A DNA stretch of 32,000 nucleotides from Clostridia bacterium (GTDB lineage: Bacteria > Bacillota > Clostridia > TANB77 > RGIG9151): the NCBI GenBank assembly GCA_017934955.1, contig JAGBIO010000005.1, positions 39,642 through 71,641 on the forward strand. Reading direction: 5' to 3'. The translations under genes were made by a program, and so were the position numbers. Shown one piece after another: positions 6,499 to 31,378 of the stretch (position 1 is the stretch's first letter; every line of letters starts with the position of its first letter). The notes below the pieces were generated by a model that saw only the letters and a list, made by a program, of their open reading frames with translations, had not been told where the DNA came from and ran no database searches.

Positions 6499-6939
6499 AG
6501 ATGTATTATTAGGAATAGTATCATTATGTACATAATTTCCTATTTACCACAAGCAATTAAATTAATTAAAACAAAAGAATCAAAAGATTTAAGCAAAACT
6601 GCTTAGATAATATGGGGTGTAAGCAGTTTTTCATATTCATTGTATGCATTTCTGTGTTCTGATGAATTTATGTTAAAATTTGAAACTACATTAGAATTTT
6701 CTGTTACTAATCAGACTTAAAATTATAAAAATGTTACGAACACTGTAGGGACAGCATTTATGCTGTCCACAGAAAAGGCGGAAAGCAGGACAGCATGAAT
6801 GCTGTCCCTACAATGGTTGTAGCATCATTATAAAAAGCTATAGTCTGACCTGTAACAATTTTCTTTTTGTTTACTAATACTATTATTGACGGTAAAATAT
6901 AGAAATAATAAAATAGAAGGTGATAAAAATGACAAATAA
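6499..6939 (+). pseudogene. SemiSWEET/PQ-loop transporter remnant: 5'-truncated, in-frame TAG at 6604-6606, interrupted by the MITE at 6703-6856
   Basis: Frame 1 reads ..IIMYIISYLPQAIKLIKTKESKDLSKTA*IIWGVSSFSYSLYAFL..FETTLEFS, which carries the PQ motif. After removing the MITE plus one TSD copy (162 bp, 54 codons) the frame continues FCLLILLLTVKYRNNK.., a plausible last TM helix with a basic tail. Confidence 0.6.
6703..6856. mobile_element. MITE copy A (154 bp): TIRs GTTACTAATCAGACT / AGTCTGACCTGTAAC, internal inverted doublet of CAGCAT-type hairpins (6749-6768, 6788-6807), 8-bp TSD AATTTTCT (6695-6702 and 6857-6864)
   Basis: TIRs, the perfect direct duplication and similarity to the second copy at 22354-22523 were all read directly. 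Confidence 0.8.
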
Positions 6940-7809: not shown

Positions 7810-7882
7810 GGACACAATAAATTGTGTCCGTACGGAATGAGAAGAAAGGTAAAAAGATGTATGGACAGCATAAATGCTGTCC
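7810..7882. repeat. Direct tandem pair of hairpins of two different stem subfamilies (GGACACAATAAATTGTGTCC 7810-7829; GGACAGCATAAATGCTGTCC 7863-7882), each followed by GTACGGA[A/G]TGAGAAG[A/G]AAG
   Basis: Read directly. 53-bp period, conserved flank and compensatory stem difference. Confidence 0.9.
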
Positions 7883-9482: not shown

Positions 9483-9670
9483 GGACAGCATGAATGCTGT
9501 CCGTACAGTAAATTAAGAATTAAAGTGGGAATATGGACATCAAATTAAGAACTAAAGTGAGTGTAGGGACAGCATGAATGCTGTCCGTACAGTAAATTAA
9601 GAATTAAAGTGGGAATATGGATATCAAATTAAGAACTAAAGTGAGTGTAGGGACAGCATTTATGCTGTCC
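9483..9670. repeat. Tandem array of 3 hairpins (cores 9483-9502, 9567-9586, 9651-9670), exact 84-bp period
   Basis: The unit GTGTAGGGACAGCATGAATGCTGTCCGTACAGTAAATTAAGAATTAAAGTGGGAATATGGA[C/T]ATCAAATTAAGAACTAAAGTGA occurs 2.4 times. The last core has loop TT. Confidence 0.9.
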
Positions 9671-13356: not shown

Positions 13357-13400
13357 GGAAGTAGTTTAAAGTCATAAGGGCTTTAGACTGCTTCCTTTTT
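13357..13400 (+). terminator. Strong intrinsic terminator, 26 nt upstream of the next start codon
   Basis: 15-bp continuous stem (GGAAGTAGTTTAAAG / CTTTAGACTGCTTCC, two G.U pairs), 9-nt loop, then TTTTTGTGTTTT. Confidence 0.75.
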
Positions 13401-13425
13401 GTGTTTTAAAGAAAGGGTGGATGAG

Positions 13426-15369
13426 ATGAAGAGAGGTTTGAAATTTAGTTTATTTCTGTTAATGATGGGGGTGATGTTGGGAATAGGCAGTGTTGCGGAG
13501 GCGGCAGTTCCGGCTTATAGTTATACAGGAACGTCGAGTACGTCAACGGATAGCAATTATTGGTATATTTACTTAAAATCTTCCGGAACGCTGAAATTTA
13601 CCAGTGAATCACCGAAAATTGATGCTTTCCTAGTAGGAGGAGGCGGTGGTGGTGCTCAATCCTGGTATGATAGTAACTATGGTCAAGGAGGCGGTGGCGG
13701 TGGCTATACCAAAACGGTAGACAATATTTCCTTAACAAGTGGAACCGGATATGCAATTACCATAGGCGCTGGAGGTGCTGGACTTTGCGATAGTGAAAGG
13801 TACGCTGGAACCGGAGGCACAACATCTGCATTTAACTATAGTGCAGCCGGAGGTGGAGGCGCAAAGAAGAGTGGTAGTGGTAACTCTTTGGGAGGAACGG
13901 GCGGTTCAAATGGTGGGACCCCCGGAAATGCAGGAAGTAATGGTGCATATGCATTTGGTGATAGTAGTTTAAGTCGTTATGGAGCTGGCGGCGGAGGCGG
14001 TGGTAATGCCGGAGCTGCCGGAGCTGCCGGAGGTGCTAACGGTGGAGGAACCGGAGGAAATGGATATTCAAATCCTGCTGGCCAAAATGGAACAGCGAAT
14101 ACCGGCGGAGGCGGAGGCGGTGCAGGCGGTAACGGCGGTTGGTCTTGTGAAGAGGCCGGCGGAACCGGAGGTAGCGGTATCGTTATCATTCGAGGGTGTT
14201 TAGCTCATAAAGGAGGAACGCATGCGAATGGAGGAAAGTGTACCACTTGTGGAGTTGTATACCAAACACACAGTCAATCAAGCACGGTATCAAGTTACAC
14301 CAAAACGAGCACGCAACATACACCGAATTACGCATGTAGCTACAGCGGATGTACGACGACATATGCGGGAACGGCGGCGAACCATAGCGGAGCGACGCAT
14401 AATAACGGAGGAAAGTGTACCGTGTGTGAGTATGTATACCAAACACACAGTCAATCAAGCACGGTATCAGGTTATACGACAACAAGCACGCAACATACAC
14501 CAAATTATGCATGTAGCTACAGCGGATGTACGACGACATATGCGGGAACGGCGGCGAACCATAGCGGAGCGACGCATAATAACGGAGGAAAGTGTACCGT
14601 GTGTGAGTATGTATATGAAACGCACAGTCAGTCGACGGCAATTGTAAGTTATACGCAAACAAGCACACAACATACGCCAATTTATGCGTGTACGTTAAAC
14701 GGATGCTCGGGAACATATGCCGGAACAACAGAACTCCACAGCGGAGGCGGAGAAAATGACGGAATGTGCGGGATTTGCGGAATGCAGTATCAAACGCATA
14801 GTCCTTCTACGAATATCGTAACTTATAAGCAAACAGAAACACAACATACACCAATTTATGAATGTAATGTAACGAATTGTACACAACTTTATTTAGGAAC
14901 AGCAGAAAATCATAGCGGAGCGACGCATAATAATGGGGGAAAATGTACCGTTTGCGGATATGTTTACGAAACCCATGGTCAATCTGAAACGGTTGTCTCC
15001 TATACGCAACAAGAAACAGGACATATTCCTGTGTATGGTTGTACCTATAGTGGATGTGCATCAACTTATACCGGAACATTACAACTCCATGACGGAACGA
15101 TAGAATTACATGTAGCAAACAGTTCTTGTGAATCGTGCGGTTGGGGAAGTGAAAATACGGGTGGAACGTATGTATTAACAATAAATTATAATGATACTGT
15201 CGTAACAAAAGACGTGGAATCGGGTAGAATTGTAACGTTAGGAATAGGAAGTCGTGTTGATGCGACATATACTGTAACTACCGGAAATGCTGTACTAAAA
15301 ATGTATGGAACTCGTCGGCAATTTGTGATGCCGGCAGAAAATGTTACGATTACAATCCAAGATATATAG
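13426..15369 (+). CDS. Secreted glycine-rich protein with 5.5 tandem 59-aa Cys/His modules and a C-terminal beta-rich domain
   Basis: RBS AAAGGGTGG. Signal peptide MKRGLKFSLFLLMMGVMLGIGSVAEA. GGGGGG runs ending in GSGIVIIRG. Repeats of H.G.TH.NGGKCT.C.YVY.THSQS...Y..T.TQHTP.Y.C...C...Y.GT. C-terminal F.MPAENVTITI resembles InlB-B-repeat-like domains. Confidence 0.8.
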   Translation: MKRGLKFSLFLLMMGVMLGIGSVAEAAVPAYSYTGTSSTSTDSNYWYIYLKSSGTLKFTSESPKIDAFLVGGGGGGAQSWYDSNYGQGGGGGGYTKTVDNISLTSGTGYAITIGAGGAGLCDSERYAGTGGTTSAFNYSAAGGGGAKKSGSGNSLGGTGGSNGGTPGNAGSNGAYAFGDSSLSRYGAGGGGGGNAGAAGAAGGANGGGTGGNGYSNPAGQNGTANTGGGGGGAGGNGGWSCEEAGGTGGSGIVIIRGCLAHKGGTHANGGKCTTCGVVYQTHSQSSTVSSYTKTSTQHTPNYACSYSGCTTTYAGTAANHSGATHNNGGKCTVCEYVYQTHSQSSTVSGYTTTSTQHTPNYACSYSGCTTTYAGTAANHSGATHNNGGKCTVCEYVYETHSQSTAIVSYTQTSTQHTPIYACTLNGCSGTYAGTTELHSGGGENDGMCGICGMQYQTHSPSTNIVTYKQTETQHTPIYECNVTNCTQLYLGTAENHSGATHNNGGKCTVCGYVYETHGQSETVVSYTQQETGHIPVYGCTYSGCASTYTGTLQLHDGTIELHVANSSCESCGWGSENTGGTYVLTINYNDTVVTKDVESGRIVTLGIGSRVDATYTVTTGNAVLKMYGTRRQFVMPAENVTITIQDI

Positions 15370-15459: not shown

Positions 15460-16311
15460 TTATAAGCTTTGTAAAAGCTGTAAGATGGATTCGTTTTGTT
15501 TGTTGGCTTGGGCTAACATTGTCATGGCAACTTGAGATAGCATTGCATATTTTGTATAATTCATCATTTCTTCTGCCATATCGACGTCGCGAATACGAGA
15601 TTCGGCAGCGGTTAGATTTTCTTCGGTAGTTTCTAAGTTATTCATGGTATAGTCTAAACGGTTTTGTACGGCGCCTAAGGTGGTTCGTTGTAAAGTAACT
15701 TTGGAAAGGGCGGAGTCGATTCCTTTTAATGTTTCATTCATTGCACTTGGGGAAGAAATATCGATGGAGAATCTTGCTCCTTCTGTATCGGAGAGTCCTT
15801 TGGAGGACATATCGTTGATTTCAACGGAGATTCGATCGCAGTCATTGGTGCTTGCCCCTACTTGAAATACGGCAGGGGAATCTTTTCCGCAGGAGCCGTC
15901 TAAGATGTTTTTGGTGTTAAAGGTTGTGGTGGCAGCGATTCGGTCAATTTCGTCACGAAGAGAGGAAAGTTCTACTTCGATGGCGCTTCGGTCGGATTCA
16001 GAAAGAACGCCGGTATTTTGCGCTTTAATTACTAATTCGCGCATTCTTTGTAAAATATCCGTACTTTGTTCTAAGGCGCCTTCGCCGGTTTGAAGAAAGG
16101 AAACGGCATCTTGCACGTTGGATTGCGCTTGACGAAGCCCACGAATTTGAGCGCGCATTCTTTCACTGATGGCAAGCCCTACCGGGTCGTCGGCAGCACT
16201 ATTAATTCGTAGTCCGGAAGCGAGTCGTTTCATAGACTTTTCCATATAAGATTGATTTTTTCTTAAGGCGTTTAGTGCATTTAACGCCATGACATTGGAA
16301 TTGATTCTCAT
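15460..16311 (-). CDS. fliC: Flagellin (283 aa)
   Basis: MRINSNVMALNA start, LASGLRINSAADD, C-terminal AESRIRDVDMAEEM..LAQANKQ..LQLLQSL. The start was set at ATG 16311, behind GGAGGAGG. Confidence 0.9.
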   Translation of the reverse strand: MRINSNVMALNALNALRKNQSYMEKSMKRLASGLRINSAADDPVGLAISERMRAQIRGLRQAQSNVQDAVSFLQTGEGALEQSTDILQRMRELVIKAQNTGVLSESDRSAIEVELSSLRDEIDRIAATTTFNTKNILDGSCGKDSPAVFQVGASTNDCDRISVEINDMSSKGLSDTEGARFSIDISSPSAMNETLKGIDSALSKVTLQRTTLGAVQNRLDYTMNNLETTEENLTAAESRIRDVDMAEEMMNYTKYAMLSQVAMTMLAQANKQNESILQLLQSL

Positions 16312-16366
16312 GCTATTACCTCCTCCGTGAGATAAATCTGCATCCATACAGGTTACTATATTTTAT

Positions 16367-16394
16367 ATATCGTCATTTTGTTACGTTAACTTTA
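16367..16394 (-). promoter_or_regulatory. Sigma-28 (SigD/FliA)-type promoter of the flagellin gene
   Basis: The minus strand reads TAAA-N16-GACGATAT, against the consensus TAAA-N15-GCCGATAT. Confidence 0.65.
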
Positions 16395-16448: not shown

Positions 16449-16468
16449 GGACAGCATGAATGCTGTCC
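16449..16468. repeat. Single hairpin copy (GGACAGCATGAATGCTGTCC). On the minus strand it is followed by ATTTTTGTT.
   Basis: Read directly. It lies 30 nt downstream of the mini-flagellin stop codon on the minus strand, so it is shaped like an intrinsic terminator. Confidence 0.85.
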
Positions 16469-16497: not shown

Positions 16498-16815
16498 TTA
16501 AAAATCCAATAAATTTGCAACATCGGTTGCGTTAGAATTTGCCTGGGAGAGAAGTGCGGTTCCGGATTTATGCAACATTGCTTGTTTCGTGATATTTAAA
16601 TATTCTCTTGCCATATCGACATCAGTGATTTTTGATTCGGCTGCTTCTGTGTTACTAAGTGCCAAATCTTCGGTATTGATTTCCGGATCGATAAGAGCTT
16701 CTTCGGAGGTTAAATTAACTCCGGAAGCAATTTTTTTCGCAGAAGTTTCAATGTTTTTCTGACTTGTTTTAATTGAATTTAATGCACTTTGATATAAGTT
16801 TGATGTAATTTTCAT
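16498..16815 (-). CDS. Mini-flagellin: 105-aa protein with only flagellin N-terminal and C-terminal D0-like segments
   Basis: MKITSNLYQSALNS..KKIASGVNLTSEEA aligns with the flagellin N-terminus. AESKITDVDMAREYLNITKQAMLHKSGTALLSQANSN..LLDF aligns with the flagellin C-terminus. GGAGG RBS and its own sigma-28 promoter. Confidence 0.75.
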   Translation of the reverse strand: MKITSNLYQSALNSIKTSQKNIETSAKKIASGVNLTSEEALIDPEINTEDLALSNTEAAESKITDVDMAREYLNITKQAMLHKSGTALLSQANSNATDVANLLDF

Positions 16816-16864
16816 AATAGCCTCCGATTTCTTACAGTTTTAATATTAACATATTCCAATATTA

Positions 16865-16892
16865 ATATCGGCAGAAGTAACAAATAAATTTA
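16865..16892 (-). promoter_or_regulatory. Sigma-28-type promoter of the mini-flagellin gene
   Basis: The minus strand reads TAAA-N16-GCCGATAT, a perfect -10 octamer. Confidence 0.7.
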
Positions 16893-16938: not shown

Positions 16939-16998
16939 GGACAGCATGAATGCTGTCCACAGAATAGGCAGAAAAGCAGGACAGCATAAATGCTGTCC
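16939..16998. repeat. Direct doublet of hairpins (16939-16958 loop GA; 16979-16998 loop AA) with spacer ACAGAATAGGCAGAAAAGCA
   Basis: Read directly. Confidence 0.9.
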
Positions 16999-17083
16999 GT
17001 ACATCATTATAAGCAAATATGTCTGCCTTGTAATTTCTCGATGCAAAATTTTTGAAAAAATACTGTGCAAATCTCAAAAAATT

Positions 17084-17092
17084 TGATACAAT
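17084..17092 (+). promoter_or_regulatory. Candidate extended -10 promoter for pyk (TGATACAAT)
   Basis: TGnTACAAT lies 33 nt upstream of ATG 17125. The -35 is weak. Confidence 0.3.
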
Positions 17093-17124
17093 ATAGCGAA
17101 ATAGATGATGATGGAGGGAATTTT

Positions 17125-18561
17125 ATGAGAAAGACGAAGATTATTTGCACGTTGGGGCCGGCGGTGGATAGCGATGAGATGATCCGGAAGATGATGATAA
17201 ATGGGATGGATTGTGCGAGAATGAATTTTTCACATGGGACGCATGAGGAACATTTAGCTCGTATTGAGCGTGTGAAGAGGGTTCGTAAGGAGTTGAATCG
17301 TAATATTCCGATTTTATTGGATACGAAGGGACCGGAAATTCGAGTAAAGGATTTTGAAAAATCTTCGGTAGAGTTGACGGCAGGACAGACGTTTGTTTTT
17401 TATGCGAAGGAACGTCTTGGGGATGAGAGTGGCGTTTCGGTGACGTATCCGCATTTGGCGGAGTCTGTTTCGAAAGGGACGACAATTTTAATTGATGACG
17501 GAAAAGTGGCGGTTGAGGTAACCGAGCTTGACGGAGAAAATGTGGTTTGTAAGGTGATTAACGGCGGAAAAATCAGCAATCACAAGAGTATTAATATTCC
17601 GAATGTGAGAGTGGATATGCCGTACCTTAGTGAGACGGATAAAAGTGATATTTTGTTTGGTATTGAAAATGATATTGATTTTATTGCGGCTTCTTTTGTT
17701 AGAACGGCGAGTGATATTTTAGAGCTTCGTAAGCTGTTGAAGGATAATGGCGGAGAGGCGATTAAGATTATTGCGAAGATTGAAAACGGGGAAGGCGTGG
17801 ATCATCTTGATGAAATTATTGAAGTGAGCGACGGCGTTATGGTGGCGAGAGGAGACATGGGAGTGGAGCTTCCGTTTACGATGTTGCCGAAAATTCAAAA
17901 GGATATGATTAAAAAGTGTTACAGAGCCGGAAAGCATGTGGTTACTGCGACGCAAATGTTGGAATCTATGACACATTCTCCGCGACCGACCAGAGCGGAA
18001 GTTTCGGATGTGGCGAATGCGATTTATGATGGCACGACAGCGATTATGTTATCGGGGGAATCGGCTGCGGGAGATTATCCTGTGGAGAGTGTGAGGACGA
18101 TGGCAGAGATTGCGGAGAGTACGGAGCAGTCGATTCGGTATCCTGTGAGATATGAGAGAAATAAATTGGATTTGGGGCATGATATTTTAAATGCAATCAG
18201 TAATTCGGCTTGTGGCGCTTCTTATCGATTAAATGCGAAGGCGATTGTGGCGTTGAGTCGTACCGGAAGAACGGCGAAGCAGCTTTCGAATTATCGTCCG
18301 TCTTGTCCGATTTTGGCGGCGGTATTGGATGAGAAGGCGTGCAGACAGTTGAGTCTTGCTTGGAATGTGAAGCCGATTTTATCGCAGGAGAAGCATTCTA
18401 CGGATGATTTATTGCAACAGGGAATTTGCGTTGCGGTGAGAGAGGGGATTGCGGCTGTCGGAGATACGATCGTGTTGACTTGTAGCGCGGCGATTGGTGA
18501 TCCGAATACCGATTTGATGAAGGTACATGTGATTTCGGAGGAAGATTTGATAGAGGAGTAA
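17125..18561 (+). CDS. pyk: Pyruvate kinase
   Basis: MRKTKIICTLGPA start, MNFSHG, ARGDMGVE and MLSGESA motifs. The start was set at ATG 17125, behind GGAGGG. Confidence 0.9.
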   Translation: MRKTKIICTLGPAVDSDEMIRKMMINGMDCARMNFSHGTHEEHLARIERVKRVRKELNRNIPILLDTKGPEIRVKDFEKSSVELTAGQTFVFYAKERLGDESGVSVTYPHLAESVSKGTTILIDDGKVAVEVTELDGENVVCKVINGGKISNHKSINIPNVRVDMPYLSETDKSDILFGIENDIDFIAASFVRTASDILELRKLLKDNGGEAIKIIAKIENGEGVDHLDEIIEVSDGVMVARGDMGVELPFTMLPKIQKDMIKKCYRAGKHVVTATQMLESMTHSPRPTRAEVSDVANAIYDGTTAIMLSGESAAGDYPVESVRTMAEIAESTEQSIRYPVRYERNKLDLGHDILNAISNSACGASYRLNAKAIVALSRTGRTAKQLSNYRPSCPILAAVLDEKACRQLSLAWNVKPILSQEKHSTDDLLQQGICVAVREGIAAVGDTIVLTCSAAIGDPNTDLMKVHVISEEDLIEE

Positions 18562-19237: not shown

Positions 19238-19642
19238 ATGAATAAAAGAACAGAGAATATAAAGCGTTTGATTCAGGAGGAAGGCAACCAGTTAAATGTG
19301 ATTTCGGAATTGGTTGATTTATTGGAAGAGATGGAGGATGAAATCGATTCTCTTCAAAAGAAATGCGGAGCTCTTGAGAATGAAGTTGATGCGATTAATG
19401 AGGATCTTAGCTTGATTTCGGATGGAATGCATATTGAAGAATTTGATTCGATTGTCGAGGCTGTCTGTCCGTATTGTCAAGAGAATATCGAGATTGATTT
19501 GGATAATTTAGAGAGTGAAGATGAATTTAAGTGCCCGCACTGCGGTAAAGAAATTACGTTAGAGTGGGATGAATGTGAATGTTGCGATCATGATCACGAT
19601 TGCGATTGTGATGATTGCGACGACGATGAGGATGAGGAATAA
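19238..19642 (+). CDS. Acidic coiled-coil / zinc-ribbon protein with Cys-His-Asp-rich tail (resembles the CD1247 N-terminal domain family, recalled from memory)
   Basis: CPYC..N17..CPHCG zinc ribbon, then CECCDHDHDCDCDDCDDDEDEE. AGGAGG RBS. Immediately downstream of efp. Confidence 0.6.
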   Translation: MNKRTENIKRLIQEEGNQLNVISELVDLLEEMEDEIDSLQKKCGALENEVDAINEDLSLISDGMHIEEFDSIVEAVCPYCQENIEIDLDNLESEDEFKCPHCGKEITLEWDECECCDHDHDCDCDDCDDDEDEE

Positions 19643-25984: not shown

Positions 25985-26004
25985 GGACAGCATTCATGCT
26001 GTCC
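25985..26004. repeat. Single hairpin copy (TGTAGGGACAGCATTCATGCTGTCCGCAGAAAAGGCGG) between dnaK and dnaJ
   Basis: Read directly. It carries the left half of the doublet spacer but no second hairpin. Confidence 0.85.
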
Positions 26005-27257: not shown

Positions 27258-27277
27258 GGACAGCATGAATGCTGTCC
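27258..27277. repeat. Single hairpin copy (GGACAGCATGAATGCTGTCCGTACA) after the dnaJ stop codon
   Basis: Read directly. Confidence 0.85.
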
Positions 27278-27423: not shown

Positions 27424-27451
27424 TAAAGTTTATGTGAACTTATGCCGATAT
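27424..27451 (+). promoter_or_regulatory. Sigma-28-type promoter of the flaG-fliD-fliS operon
   Basis: TAAA-N16-GCCGATAT, with a perfect -10 octamer at 27444-27451. Confidence 0.7.
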
Positions 27452-27494
27452 AACAAATGTAGGAGAAGATTTTTCACACATGGAGGTGTGTATT

Positions 27495-27869
27495 ATGAAA
27501 GTAGAAATGGGTAATGAACAAAGAGTTTATGCGAATCCGGAGGTGAGCAAGGTACAACCGGAGAAAGCGACTCGAGCAGAAGTGAAGGAGGCTTTGGAGA
27601 CCGCTTCTAAGAGAGAGGGACTTACAGACAACGAGGCAAAAAAGGTAAAAGATGTTGTTGAGAAGATGAACAAGGAACTTGAAATGACGGATACCGCAAT
27701 CAAGTTTAAGGTTCATGAGAGTAAAGAAGGAACTCTTAATAAAGTCTCTATTAAAGTTGTGGAAAGAGAGAGCGAGAAGGTTATTATTGAAATTCCTTCC
27801 GAAGAAGCGATTGAATTTTCCGAGAAAATGGATGAAATTACGGGCATGCTATTTGATCACAGTAGATAA
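27495..27869 (+). CDS. flaG: Flagellar protein FlaG
   Basis: The C-terminal pattern L.F.VHE....V.I.VV.RES.KVI.EIP.EE.I.F is FlaG-like. The gene precedes fliD as in the B. subtilis yvyC-fliD-fliS-fliT operon. Start at ATG 27495, behind GGAGG. Confidence 0.75.
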   Translation: MKVEMGNEQRVYANPEVSKVQPEKATRAEVKEALETASKREGLTDNEAKKVKDVVEKMNKELEMTDTAIKFKVHESKEGTLNKVSIKVVERESEKVIIEIPSEEAIEFSEKMDEITGMLFDHSR

Positions 27870-27939
27870 TTGTGAGAGAATAGCAGCTTGTGATGTACTT
27901 TTGTGAGAGTAAAAATCTCTTTGGTTAGGAGGTAAGAAT

Positions 27940-30081
27940 ATGGCTGTAAACAGGATTACCGGCTTAGCGACCGGCATGGATACTGATGCGCTTATCGAAC
28001 AGTTAATGAGTGCCAGTCGTGCACCGTTGACGAAATTAGAACAGAAAAACACAAAGATAGAATGGCAGAGACAAGCGATGTTGGATATCAATTCGAAACT
28101 TCTTTCTTTCCGGACGGCTGCACTTGATATGAAATTACAGGGAACCTATAAGTCTTATACAGCAACCTCTTCGAATTCTAATTTGGTGTCTGCGTCAGCG
28201 ACGACAGAGGCGGAGGAAGGCGTATATACTTTTAAAGTTTCTCAACTTGCGACAAAGACTACTTTGGAAGGTAGAGCGATTACGGAGCAAATCAAGTCTT
28301 CGGAAGGATTTGCGATTGGTGCTCTTGATGTGGCGGGAAAGGAATTTTATATTAATTTTAATGGAGAAAAGAAAAAAATCAGCTTTGGAGAGAGCGAAAG
28401 TTATAACGCGCCTGCGGATTTAGCGTCTGCGTTACAATCAAAAGTGGATGATACGTTTGGTGCAAATCAAATTAAAGTGACGCAGGTAACTTTGTCCGGT
28501 AAAACAACTCTTCGTTTTGAAAGTGATTCTGCGTTGAATTTGCCTGTTACTGTAGCAAGTTCGGAGACAGCGGAGAAAGATTTCCTTTCTGCGGTAAACA
28601 TTAAAGATGGAAGTACGACAAGTTTTAGCTTGTCTTCGCGTATTGGAGATTTAATGAGTTCCGGTTTTGATGCGGAAGGCAATTTTACGATTTCAGTAAG
28701 AGATAGAGAGTTTACTTTTAATAAAGATCAGACATTAAGTGATGTATTTAATACCATTAATAAAGCTGAGGATTTGGATGTTACGGCGAGATATGACAGC
28801 GTAAACCGAAAGGTTGTATTTGAGAGATCCAGTACCGGTGATGGAAAGGATTTAAAAATCGGTGGAAGTCGTCAGTTCTGGTCGGCACTTAAAATGTCTA
28901 CAACACAGGCTGCTGTTTCCGGTCAAAATGCTAAATTTGATATTACAACGCCGGATGGTCAGACGGTTAAAGATGTTGAAATGGCAAGTAACAGCTTTAC
29001 TTATAAAGGGGTTACAGCTACTTTATTGAATGCAAATCCTGATGAAATGGTTTCGGTTACGGTTTCGAAAAATGTGGATGCAGTTTATGAAAAGATTGAG
29101 AATTTTGTAAACAGTTACAATGATTTGTTGGTATCGCTAAATAAAGCATATAATGAAGAGACAACAGGTTATGATCCTCTTACCGATGAGGAAAGAGAAA
29201 GCTTGTCGGATACCCAGCAGGAACAGTGGGAAGAAAAAGCAAAGCAGGGAATTTTAAGAAGAGATTCTACGATTAAGAGCACGATTACGAGTTTGCGTTC
29301 GGCAGTTACTTCTTACGTGTCAGGTTCGGGCATTTCTTCATTATTTCAAATCGGAATCAGTACAACTCAGTATGATTCGGTAAATAGTGAGAATAACGGT
29401 AAGTTGGTGATTGATAAGGATAAATTAAAAGAGGCGATTACCAATGATATTGATGGTGTTACTTCGTTATTTACTAATACAGCAAAGCAGATTCAGGGAA
29501 ATAAGTTGTCGGATACGAATTTGAATTTGGATGGAAAATCCTTTACCGTGACATACGGCGGTTCTACAAAGACGATTACTCTTGAGGGGTCGTATGATTT
29601 GAGTAACGCAAGTTCGGCTTCGGATTTTGAAGATTATATGAAAGAGAAATTTGCGTCGGCGTTTGGGGAAGGCTGTATTTCGGTCTCTTATTCCGGCGGT
29701 AAATTGTTATTTAACTCGTTAAAGAATGTGAATATGAGTTTTCAGGCGGGTAGCGACGGTAATGATGCGTTGAGCTTGTTTAACGTTGCGGATGGTGCAA
29801 AATATGATAACAACGAGAGAGGTTTTGCGGTTAAGATTTATGATATTTGTACTACTTCGATGAATTCCATTATTGATAAAGCCGGTTCTACCTCTACGAT
29901 TCTTGATGAGAGTGATCTTGGTAAAAAGATGAAGCAGATTAAACAATCGATTGCGACGCAGCAGGAGAGATTGGAACGGTTGGAAGAAAGATATTACAGT
30001 CAGTTTGCTGCGATGGAAGAGGCTATTAACAACATGAACTCGCAGAGTTCTTATTTGCAAAGTATGTTAAATGGTGGTTAA
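27940..30081 (+). CDS. fliD: Flagellar filament cap protein FliD (long form, 713 aa)
   Basis: N-terminal ITGLATGMDTDALIEQLM..R.P and C-terminal E.RY..QF.AME..I..MNSQ..YL are FliD signatures. Confidence 0.85.
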   Translation: MAVNRITGLATGMDTDALIEQLMSASRAPLTKLEQKNTKIEWQRQAMLDINSKLLSFRTAALDMKLQGTYKSYTATSSNSNLVSASATTEAEEGVYTFKVSQLATKTTLEGRAITEQIKSSEGFAIGALDVAGKEFYINFNGEKKKISFGESESYNAPADLASALQSKVDDTFGANQIKVTQVTLSGKTTLRFESDSALNLPVTVASSETAEKDFLSAVNIKDGSTTSFSLSSRIGDLMSSGFDAEGNFTISVRDREFTFNKDQTLSDVFNTINKAEDLDVTARYDSVNRKVVFERSSTGDGKDLKIGGSRQFWSALKMSTTQAAVSGQNAKFDITTPDGQTVKDVEMASNSFTYKGVTATLLNANPDEMVSVTVSKNVDAVYEKIENFVNSYNDLLVSLNKAYNEETTGYDPLTDEERESLSDTQQEQWEEKAKQGILRRDSTIKSTITSLRSAVTSYVSGSGISSLFQIGISTTQYDSVNSENNGKLVIDKDKLKEAITNDIDGVTSLFTNTAKQIQGNKLSDTNLNLDGKSFTVTYGGSTKTITLEGSYDLSNASSASDFEDYMKEKFASAFGEGCISVSYSGGKLLFNSLKNVNMSFQAGSDGNDALSLFNVADGAKYDNNERGFAVKIYDICTTSMNSIIDKAGSTSTILDESDLGKKMKQIKQSIATQQERLERLEERYYSQFAAMEEAINNMNSQSSYLQSMLNGG

Positions 30082-30109
30082 TCAAAAATGTTAAATCGGA
30101 GGCGGATTT

Positions 30110-30517
30110 ATGGCACTGAATAAGGCGGTTTATCAATATCAGCAAAATTCGATTATGACGGCGACCCCGGAGGAGCTTACCCTTATGCTGTATAATGGTT
30201 GCATCAAGGGGATTAAAATGACGAAGATTGCGATAGAAGATAATGACTATGAGAAGGGAAATTATTATATATGTAAGGCCCAGGCGATTATTCGTGAATT
30301 GCGTGCGACCTTAGATATGAAATATGAAATTTCAAAGAATTTGTATGATTTATATACGTATTTTTTGGATAGATTAATAGAGGCGAATGTGAAGAAAGAT
30401 ACGCAAATTTTGGATGAAGTGGTTGGTTTTGTGACGGAATTGAGAGATACTTGGGCAGAGGCTATGAAGGATGCGAGAATAAAACAATCGGGTAAGATTC
30501 CGGCAAAGGAAGTTTAG
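30110..30517 (+). CDS. fliS: Flagellin-specific export chaperone FliS
   Basis: Y....I.TA.PEELTLMLY.G.IK, A..II.EL...LD and I..L...W match the FliS pattern. Confidence 0.85.
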   Translation: MALNKAVYQYQQNSIMTATPEELTLMLYNGCIKGIKMTKIAIEDNDYEKGNYYICKAQAIIRELRATLDMKYEISKNLYDLYTYFLDRLIEANVKKDTQILDEVVGFVTELRDTWAEAMKDARIKQSGKIPAKEV

Positions 30518-30536
30518 AGAATGAGGTGCAGGATAA

Positions 30537-31010
30537 ATGGATCTGAATTCTATAATGAATGATTTGATTGGAATCAGTAAGGAAAAGTGCAGATATTTAG
30601 AGGAAATTTATGTTTTAACAGAGGGACAAACGGCTGCGATTAAAAATGAAAGTATGGACGACTTGAATGATTTAATTGCGGGAAAACAATTGAAGATTGA
30701 TCATATTAAGGAATTGGATATTCAATTTGAGGGAATTACAGATCAGATTAAAAAAGAGTTTCAGATTAAAAGTTTGAGTGAATTAAAGTGTGAGAATGCG
30801 GAAATTTTGCAGGATGAAATTCGTAATATTTATGCGGTGTTGCGGAAGATTAATGAGGTTGAGAAGGAAAACAGTGCGGCATTGAATGAGAGGAAGGATG
30901 AGTTGCACGATAAAATCTCACATACGAATAAAGGGAAAATTGCGATGATGCAGTATAGTGGCGGTAGCAACTATATGGATGCCGTGTTTTTTGATAAGAA
31001 GATTAAGTAG
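30537..31010 (+). CDS. FliT/FlgN-like flagellar export chaperone (helical, 157 aa)
   Basis: The call rests on position after fliS, predicted all-helical composition and the absence of any other recognisable motif. Assignment is by synteny. Confidence 0.5.
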   Translation: MDLNSIMNDLIGISKEKCRYLEEIYVLTEGQTAAIKNESMDDLNDLIAGKQLKIDHIKELDIQFEGITDQIKKEFQIKSLSELKCENAEILQDEIRNIYAVLRKINEVEKENSAALNERKDELHDKISHTNKGKIAMMQYSGGSNYMDAVFFDKKIK

Positions 31011-31321: not shown

Positions 31322-31378
31322 GGACAGCATTCATGCTGTCCGCAGAAAAGGCAGAAAAGCAGGACGGCATAGCAGCGG
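31322..31378. repeat. Hairpin copy (31322-31341, loop TC) plus doublet spacer GCAGAAAAGGCAGAAAAGCA and a decayed second hairpin (GGACGGCATAGCAGCGG)
   Basis: Read directly. The second arm has lost its palindromy. Confidence 0.8.

Follow-up and report, generated by a model that had tools for sequence, protein, structure and literature searches.

A conserved 105-residue flagellin paralogue lacking nearly all of D1, encoded beside a full-length flagellin gene in a Clostridia bacterium

The disordered N-terminus of flagellin carries the type III export signal, and the D1 domain forms the outer tube of the filament. To our knowledge, every characterised flagellin keeps the D0+D1 core, and the smallest functional flagellins have at least 250 amino acids. 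In the Hag-FliW-CsrA switch of Bacillus subtilis, with its FliS/flagellin/FliW heterotrimer, a late export substrate keeps FliS and FliW bound until its own secretion (PMC6070490, PMC6529632), and this is the principle that we propose below for a much smaller protein. Several flagellin paralogues are known to act outside the filament or on other flagellins. FlaC of Campylobacter jejuni is secreted and binds FliS but not FliW (PMC5466977), and the flagellin-homologous proteins (FHPs) FlaE/F of Vibrio are excreted and have their function in the matrix of biofilms (PMC6692518). Secretion of FljJ in Caulobacter crescentus relieves translational repression of the other flagellins, and FljJ acts with FlbT in this (PMC7591256, citing Ardissone et al. 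2020). Here we describe a gene for a 105-amino-acid protein, termed the mini-flagellin or mini, that carries both ends of a flagellin and lies directly upstream of a full-length flagellin gene. It was found in a 32,000-nucleotide stretch (the window; positions 39,642 to 71,641 of contig JAGBIO010000005.1, assembly GCA_017934955.1) from a Clostridia metagenome-assembled genome, and its NCBI record is MBP3284059.1, 'hypothetical protein J6M02_00985'.

Sequence comparison identifies the gene product as an internally deleted flagellin paralogue consisting of the N-terminal D0 helix (ND0), the last turns of the C-terminal D1 helix (CD1) and the C-terminal D0 helix (CD0). The open reading frame is present exactly as the original prediction had given it, and the flagellin-like C-terminus claimed there is strongly supported. 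Pfam Flagellin_C matches residues 54-103 (E 1.3e-10, 41.9 bits against a cutoff of 23), covering only profile positions 37-86 of 86, and it matches all of the 29 minis that we aligned from the two families described below. BLASTP finds 24/49 identities between this end and the neighbouring flagellin (E 2e-11), hhalign aligns residues 39-104 with flagellin residues 217-282 (E 7e-17), and among flagellins of solved structure the best match to the family profile has E 5.6e-12. The flagellin-like N-terminus, also claimed, is real in sequence terms, weak but specific: residues 1-44 share 18/45 identities with residues 1-43 of the neighbouring flagellin (BLASTP, E 3e-6), and residues 1-37/38 align in register, Met1 to Met1, with flagellin 1-38 by hhalign at E 0.0022 for family 1 alone and at E 3e-4 when both mini families are pooled. 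Of the expected two-ended profile match with no middle, the Flagellin_C half was found, but Pfam Flagellin_N matched neither the whole mini (E<=1) nor its residues 1-50 (E<=10), and just two of the 29 minis reached a Flagellin_N E-value of about 0.005. The NCBIfam flagellin models were likewise missed, the best score being 37.7 bits against a cutoff of 332, and no model for the mini class was found in the curated libraries. By descent the mini is a member of the flagellin family, without the features that define it (Flagellin_N and D1).

The mini has no counterpart of flagellin residues 39-216, about 178 residues that comprise the N-terminal part of D1 (ND1), the variable region and most of CD1. 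The protein had been described as D0-only, with its ends joined by an acidic linker of about 18 amino acids. Essentially all of D1 is indeed gone, but the presumed linker (residues ~37-54) aligns by hhalign with the last part of the CD1 helix of flagellin, so that the protein is ND0 + CD1 tail + CD0 and not strictly D0 only. Its layout is ND0-like over residues ~1-38 and CD0 over ~57-105; the stretch between them (~39-56) is a diverged CD1 helix tail with an invariant Asn55 (N55). AlphaFold2 (AF2) models made with 15 and 29 homologues predict helices at 3-24/29, 48-59, 66-94 and 96-103 with a predicted template modelling (pTM) score of 0.37-0.39; the C-terminal helices alone are confident, the N-terminal helix is of low confidence, and no packed fold is predicted. 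The termini of free monomeric flagellin are disordered, and the AF2 picture fits this. A Foldseek search of the model against the PDB gave nothing below E = 2.7, which is uninformative for so extended and low-confidence a model. Identity of the mini with FliE was also considered and rejected: Pfam FliE reached 14.3-15 bits against a cutoff of 22.4 (E 0.03-0.05) on the first 50 amino acids of two family members only, and gave no match for the mini of the window itself.

The gene is conserved in relatives. A word-indexed search returned ten more clusters, each of exactly 105 amino acids and 79-84% identical, and an exhaustive HMMER search returned one representative of this tight family (family 1). 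The full set of 11 clusters spans 79-100% identity. Pairwise ratios of nonsynonymous to synonymous substitution rates (dN/dS) are 0.04-0.18 for the mini at dS 0.5-1.9, against 0.05-0.09 for the adjacent flagellin, and by segment they are 0.083 for the N-terminal, 0.13 for the middle and 0.073 for the C-terminal part. Purifying selection acts on the mini as strongly as on the adjacent flagellin, and each of the three segments is constrained. Its position is conserved as well, because every related locus with enough sequence (L001-L008) shows a divergent pyruvate kinase gene, the mini gene and then a co-oriented flagellin gene for 283-305 amino acids. We consider it highly probable that the gene encodes a real, functional ND0+CD0 flagellin paralogue.

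A scan of metagenome contigs with the 29-mini alignment found no new minis; the 12 loci that it returned encode ordinary flagellins (283-676 amino acids) or fragments at contig ends. A scan of genome contigs with the mini returned solely a Melioribacteraceae flagellin. Among the metagenome loci, L026 (9446-10168; contig Ga0247611_10000007, 386 kb), holds a spirochaete-type flagellin that appears to be N-terminally truncated. Its frame opens inside the ND1 region and gives 231 amino acids from the first ATG, and the near-identical L027-L029 encode the full 282 amino acids.

The original prediction had called for a survey of short homologues beside flagellin genes, whose absence would have spoken against it, and these are present both in the relatives above and in a second, distant family. 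The exhaustive search returned distant proteins with the same end-to-end layout (P0024 with 106 amino acids, P0049 with 96, and P0070), and a profile of such proteins recovered about 20 clusters of 95-107 amino acids, which we call family 2. Their N-termini (MNINTGVMALNV...LKINE) are more plainly flagellin-like, and wherever context exists (L010, L011, L013-L018) their genes sit between two full-length flagellin genes; dN/dS is 0.22 for one pair. The leaders of family 2 contain a strictly conserved CUCAAGGAUGAG hairpin plus UUCAAGGAGG; in L010 (330-376), L011 (440-481), L013, L014 and L018 the strictly conserved leader reads CUCAAGGAUGAGAA-N5-8-UUCAAGGAGGAAUU. It resembles the paired TCAAGGA motifs of the neighbouring flagellin genes and is an arrangement of the CsrA type, with canonical dual GGA sites. 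A dual-site leader is known in principle from CsrA control of hag (PMC6070490). No sigma-28-type promoter is recognisable upstream of the family-2 mini genes. In a neighbour-joining tree of 49 columns and without support values, the two mini families group apart from the flagellins, a placement in which long-branch attraction is likely. Members of both families stand in public records as 'hypothetical protein'.

Metagenomes also hold longer 'midi' forms of 154-155 amino acids (P0176, P0179, P0180, L021), in which ND0 and part of ND1 are joined directly to ENLTAAES…CD0. In L021 a midi form (269-733) and an open reading frame for 116 amino acids (1761-2111) lie in one cluster with a 278-amino-acid flagellin. 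The 116-amino-acid product, which matches Flagellin_C only, was considered as a further mini and rejected, being a fragment of the CD1+CD0 type.

Expression signals accompany the gene (Table 1). The original prediction had given it its own perfect sigma-28 promoter and a GGAGG ribosome-binding site, and had read TAAA-N16-GACGATAT as the promoter of the full flagellin gene, all of which are found. The pattern TAAA-N14-17-CCGATA occurs twice in the 32 kb against 0.35 copies expected, the other copy being upstream of flaG-fliD-fliS. In relatives CTAAA-N16-(G/T/A)(C/A)CGATA is kept though the flanking DNA diverges, and CGGAGGC is kept in 9/9 related loci. A conserved leader motif, TTGGAATATG, starts 5 nucleotides past the -10 element, with its GGA 7 nucleotides past it; this motif could lie in the region where transcription starts or be a CsrA-type GGA site. 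The predicted fold of the mini leader is no better than that of shuffled sequence (z -0.22). The leader of the downstream flagellin gene combines a CUGUAUGGAUGCAG motif with a GGAGGAGG Shine-Dalgarno sequence in a CsrA-type arrangement, and the motif is kept in L001, L004 and L007. The proposed hairpin terminator does exist as a hairpin with a T-run, but the hairpin is also one of 18 copies in the window of a palindrome resembling repetitive extragenic palindromes (REP-like). In relatives a hairpin and T-run stand at the same position, formed by the same element or by a different sequence (L001 and L002 differ), and the hairpin of the window is probably both a terminator and a member of the repeat. 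With its own sigma-28-type promoter, and a hairpin and T-run before the flagellin promoter, the mini gene probably forms a late-class transcription unit separate from that of the flagellin gene. Rfam, run on the whole window, gave no matches, so that neither the leader nor the palindromes are explained by a known riboswitch or small RNA.

The REP-like element is a perfect palindrome, GGACAGCAT-NN-ATGCTGTCC with a loop of GA/TC or TT/AA, for which 0 copies are expected in 32 kb. The 18 copies lie at 360-379, 431-450, 2547-2749 (4), 6749-6807 (2), 7863-7882, 9483-9670 (3), 16449-16468, 16939-16998 (2), 25985-26004, 27258-27277 and 31322-31341. They are often clustered 40-85 nucleotides apart and are intergenic except for 7863-7882, which overlaps the start of an open reading frame at 7874. 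Among relatives, L004 and L007 have the same palindrome, and L002/L003 have a variant of it, GGACACAATTTATTGTGTCC, in which the stem changes are compensatory.

At the level of sequence, determinants of binding to FliS and FliW are retained in the minis, as had been proposed. Ten residues are invariant across the 29 minis: N55, A58, T76, K77, L81, L89, Q91, A92, L102 and L103. With regard to FliS, its contact area 1 on flagellin is the C-terminal D0 segment (PMC6070490), which is wholly present in the mini; residues 52-103 match residues 3-54 of 1ORY_B, a flagellin fragment bound to FliS (E 1.2e-7), and in 6GOW/5MAW the family profile also matches Hag of B. subtilis at its C-terminus. With regard to FliW, the invariant N55 (29/29) aligns with the Asn of ENLTAAES, which is Hag N255; the register was checked in the PDB sequence 6GOW_D, where GENLTAAES occupies 253-261. 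FliW binding needs this Asn in B. subtilis (N255), Treponema pallidum (N237) and Borrelia burgdorferi (N287) (PMC12327847). Moreover, FliW protects Hag regions 11-34, 50-72 and 240-260 (PMC6070490), and the first and third of these have counterparts in the mini. On the other hand, the arginines of the ESRIRD motif are gone from every mini and midi and kept whole or in part in 23/23 full-length flagellins. Their loss beside an N55 that stays invariant five residues upstream points to release of a constraint linked to D1 and polymerisation, and speaks for a D1-independent reason to retain N55.

Since the mini keeps the N-terminus that in flagellin carries the export signal, the CD0 segment around which FliS wraps and the FliW-linked Asn, we propose that it is a regulatory, chaperone-occupying export substrate, a reading to which we assign a probability of roughly 0.35-0.4. 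The mini would be made together with flagellin, bound by FliS and probably by FliW, brought to FlhA and secreted by way of the flagellum, and the filament would not retain it. Without D1 and its outer tube it presumably could not hold a normal position in the filament lattice. Until then it would keep FliS and FliW occupied in the cytoplasm, and its export would set both free; in this way it may report or buffer export capacity at low cost and so tune the translation and secretion of flagellin. A more specific form, in which the minis are dedicated secretion-coupled regulators whose accumulation sequesters FliW, frees CsrA to repress flagellin translation and occupies FliS, is more doubtful.

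Several observations weigh against a regulatory substrate of this kind. Hag 50-72 falls in the deleted ND1, and the mini also lacks the D1 contacts of FliS (contact area 2) as well as those parts of D1 that the cytosolic domain of FlhA, FlhA-C, protects (PMC6070490), so that its binding to these partners could be weaker or absent. At the N-terminus the homology is weak, with an hhalign probability of 13-40%. FlaC of C. jejuni is an example of a flagellin paralogue that binds FliS but not FliW (PMC5466977). The mini leader of the window has no canonical hairpin with GGA in its loop, and the conserved GGA may just be the start of transcription. Neither fliW nor csrA was seen in the 32-kb window or in about 1.5 kb past its 3' end, where the contigs stop, and their presence in the genome is therefore deduced solely from the flagellin leader.

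Next in probability, though unlikely, is a minor axial component, a D0-only subunit at a special position: for example one turn at the tip under the FliD cap, a boundary piece between the hook junction and the filament, or a chain terminator that limits filament length. The hydrophobic CD0/ND0 segments of the inner-tube coiled coil are retained and conserved in the mini, and the late-class promoter and the adjacency to flagellin would suit such a component too. FliE, an axial protein of about 100 amino acids that is essentially D0-like, would be a precedent, and two family members show the weak sub-threshold match to it given above. In Caulobacter, FljJ is both regulatory and hook-proximal in the filament (PMC7591256). 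Against an axial role, established filament structures imply that a subunit without D1 provides no outer tube and no D1-D1 lattice contacts. The minis have also lost the ESRIRD arginines of all polymerising flagellins that we examined, and AF2 predicts no confident pairing of the N- and C-terminal helices. Vibrio FHPs with weak subunit affinity are simply excreted (PMC6692518).

Somewhat less probable still is a secreted effector that acts extracellularly in matrix, adhesion or host interaction and has no regulatory role in the cytoplasm. Such an effector would make use of the same retained export and chaperone determinants, secreted flagellin homologues that do not assemble have precedents (PMC5466977, PMC6692518), and metagenome record names such as 'XIEF21-1' suggest ruminant gut samples, as far as names alone can tell. 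The known secreted homologues, however, keep D1 or larger surface domains that bear the extracellular activity, whereas 105 amino acids of termini that are disordered in free flagellin offer little surface for a specific function, and the most conserved residues of the mini (CD0 and N55) are those with intracellular partners.

A decaying remnant of a tandem flagellin duplication, as an internal-deletion pseudogene, or an assembly artefact is very improbable: tandem flagellin genes recombine readily and other truncations (the midi forms and the 116-amino-acid frame) occur nearby in metagenomes, but the mini keeps one length in 11 clusters with low dN/dS at near-saturated dS and a conserved promoter and ribosome-binding site, as the original prediction had judged in calling a dead remnant unlikely, the same sequence recurs in independent assemblies (NCBI, ENA, JGI, Logan), a second family has the identical architecture, and an identity of only 40-49% to the adjacent flagellin excludes a recent deletion or chimera.

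If the proposed regulatory role is right, the minis would be a third, independently evolved checkpoint of the 'secrete the inhibitor' kind, beside FlgM/sigma-28 and FljJ/FlbT, and would show in nature how little of flagellin suffices for recognition by chaperones and for type III export. A flagellin conserved in nature without D1 indicates that the terminal segments are selectable alone, and the mini may offer a natural minimal substrate for studies of flagellin recognition by FliS, FliW and FlhA. Gut or rumen Clostridia have abundant, immunologically relevant flagellins, and the minis would suggest that their flagella are subject to a level of control so far overlooked, or have an accessory function. 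Because the genes are now labelled 'hypothetical protein' or taken for flagellin fragments, definition of the family would improve annotation, and the invariant Asn together with the lost ESRIRD arginines should be a simple signature that separates minis from fragments.

Table 1. Features of the mini-flagellin locus and of the flaG-fliD-fliS region (window positions)
Feature	Position	Strand	Details and evidence
Mini-flagellin gene	16498..16815	-	ATG start, 105 aa; open reading frame listing and Flagellin_C match
Sigma-28 (SigD/FliA)-type promoter of the mini gene	16865..16892	-	TAAA 16892..16889, 16 nt, GCCGATAT 16872..16865; perfect match
Conserved leader motif TTGGAATATG	16850..16859	-	ATGGAATGTG or ATAGGATATG in relatives; sequence comparison
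Shine-Dalgarno sequence GGAGG	16821..16825	-	five bases 5' of ATG
Hairpin GGACAGCATTCATGCTGTCC and T-run	16449..16468	-	between mini gene and flagellin promoter; terminator scan
Sigma-28-type promoter and leader of the flagellin gene	16325..16394	-	TAAA 16394..16391, 16 nt, GACGATAT 16374..16367
Full-length flagellin gene	15460..16311	-	283 aa from MRINSN, directly downstream of mini gene; Flagellin_N 2.6e-44, Flagellin_C 3.1e-28
Pyruvate kinase gene	17065..18561	+	other flank of mini gene
Second sigma-28-type promoter with flaG-fliD-fliS-flgN/fliT cluster	27424..31010	+	promoter pattern and domain matches
Second sigma-28-type promoter	27424-27450	+	before flaG-fliD-fliS
flaG	27480-27869	+	
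fliD	27940-30081	+	
fliS	30110-30517	+	Pfam E 6e-42; predicted chaperone partner of the mini-flagellin
flgN/fliT-like gene	30537-31010	+	

The NCBI record of the full-length flagellin, MBP3284058.1, also has 283 amino acids and starts at MRINSN. In its short variable region (residues ~141-160) this protein carries a pair of cysteines (…DGSCGKDSP…NDCDRIS…) that is kept in 4/5 relatives compared, L007 having Tyr at the second position, and the pair suggests a possible disulfide in the flagellin of an anaerobe. The flaG-fliD-fliS-flgN/fliT cluster lies 11 kb from the mini gene and contains FliS exactly where the original prediction had placed it.

Two further genes near the flagellin locus deserve a remark. 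At 13399-15369 (+) a 656-amino-acid protein consists of a glycine-rich domain (PF21722) followed by five Cys/His-rich repeats of about 60 amino acids (…HSQSSTVS-YT-TSTQHTPNYACSYSGCTTTYAGTAANHSGATHNNGGKCTVCEYVYQT…). It is missing at the same site in L001, L004 and L007, where the flagellin gene abuts a beta-CASP ribonuclease gene, and so looks like a lineage-specific insertion beside the flagellin locus. At 19238-19642 (+), right after EF-P, lies the gene for a very acidic, Cys-rich protein of 134 amino acids (…CPYCQENIEID…CPHCGKEITLEWDECECCDHDHDCDCDDCDDDEDEE) with a weak DUF7836 match only; L001 also has a gene of similar size at this position.

Literature searches for mini, short, truncated and D1-less flagellins found no prior description of such proteins; apart from FlaC, FljJ, the Vibrio FHPs and YvzB, they gave engineered 'mini-flagellin' chimeras and speculation on EspA. 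Among described proteins, flagellin itself (FliC/Hag; PF00669 + PF00700) shares with the mini the homology of both termini, the late-class sigma-28-type promoter and, by position, adjacency to a flagellin gene, whereas the mini has 105 amino acids, no D1, no Flagellin_N match, scores below the NCBIfam cutoffs and no ESRIRD arginines. FliE (PF02049) is, like the mini, an axial-type flagellar protein of about 100 amino acids made of terminal helices, but the C-terminus of the mini is unambiguously flagellin, its promoter is of the late type and it has no flgB-flgC-fliE context. B. subtilis YvzB is an N-terminally truncated form rather than an ND0+CD0 protein. Described as a 'smaller homolog of Hag' (PMC4793158), YvzB resembles the mini as a short, uncharacterised flagellin paralogue of a Firmicute. 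FlaC and Vibrio FlaE/F are non-structural flagellin homologues exported through the flagellum, as we propose for the mini; unlike it they keep D0+D1 (FlaC lacks D2-D3 only), act extracellularly and are 2.5 to 4 times larger.

For secretion-coupled control, FlgM with sigma-28 is a further analogue of the proposed role. FlbT and FlaF are alphaproteobacterial. It is with these, instead of FliW/CsrA/FliS, that FljJ works, and it also differs from the mini by its full length without internal deletion and by its hook-proximal incorporation. The likeness lies in that FljJ, too, is a specialised paralogue that cannot build a filament alone (PMC7591256). The Hag-FliW-CsrA switch supplies the principle of the proposal; Hag is itself a structural subunit, whereas the mini, without Hag 50-72 and the D1 contacts, would apply that principle with the ends of the flagellin molecule.

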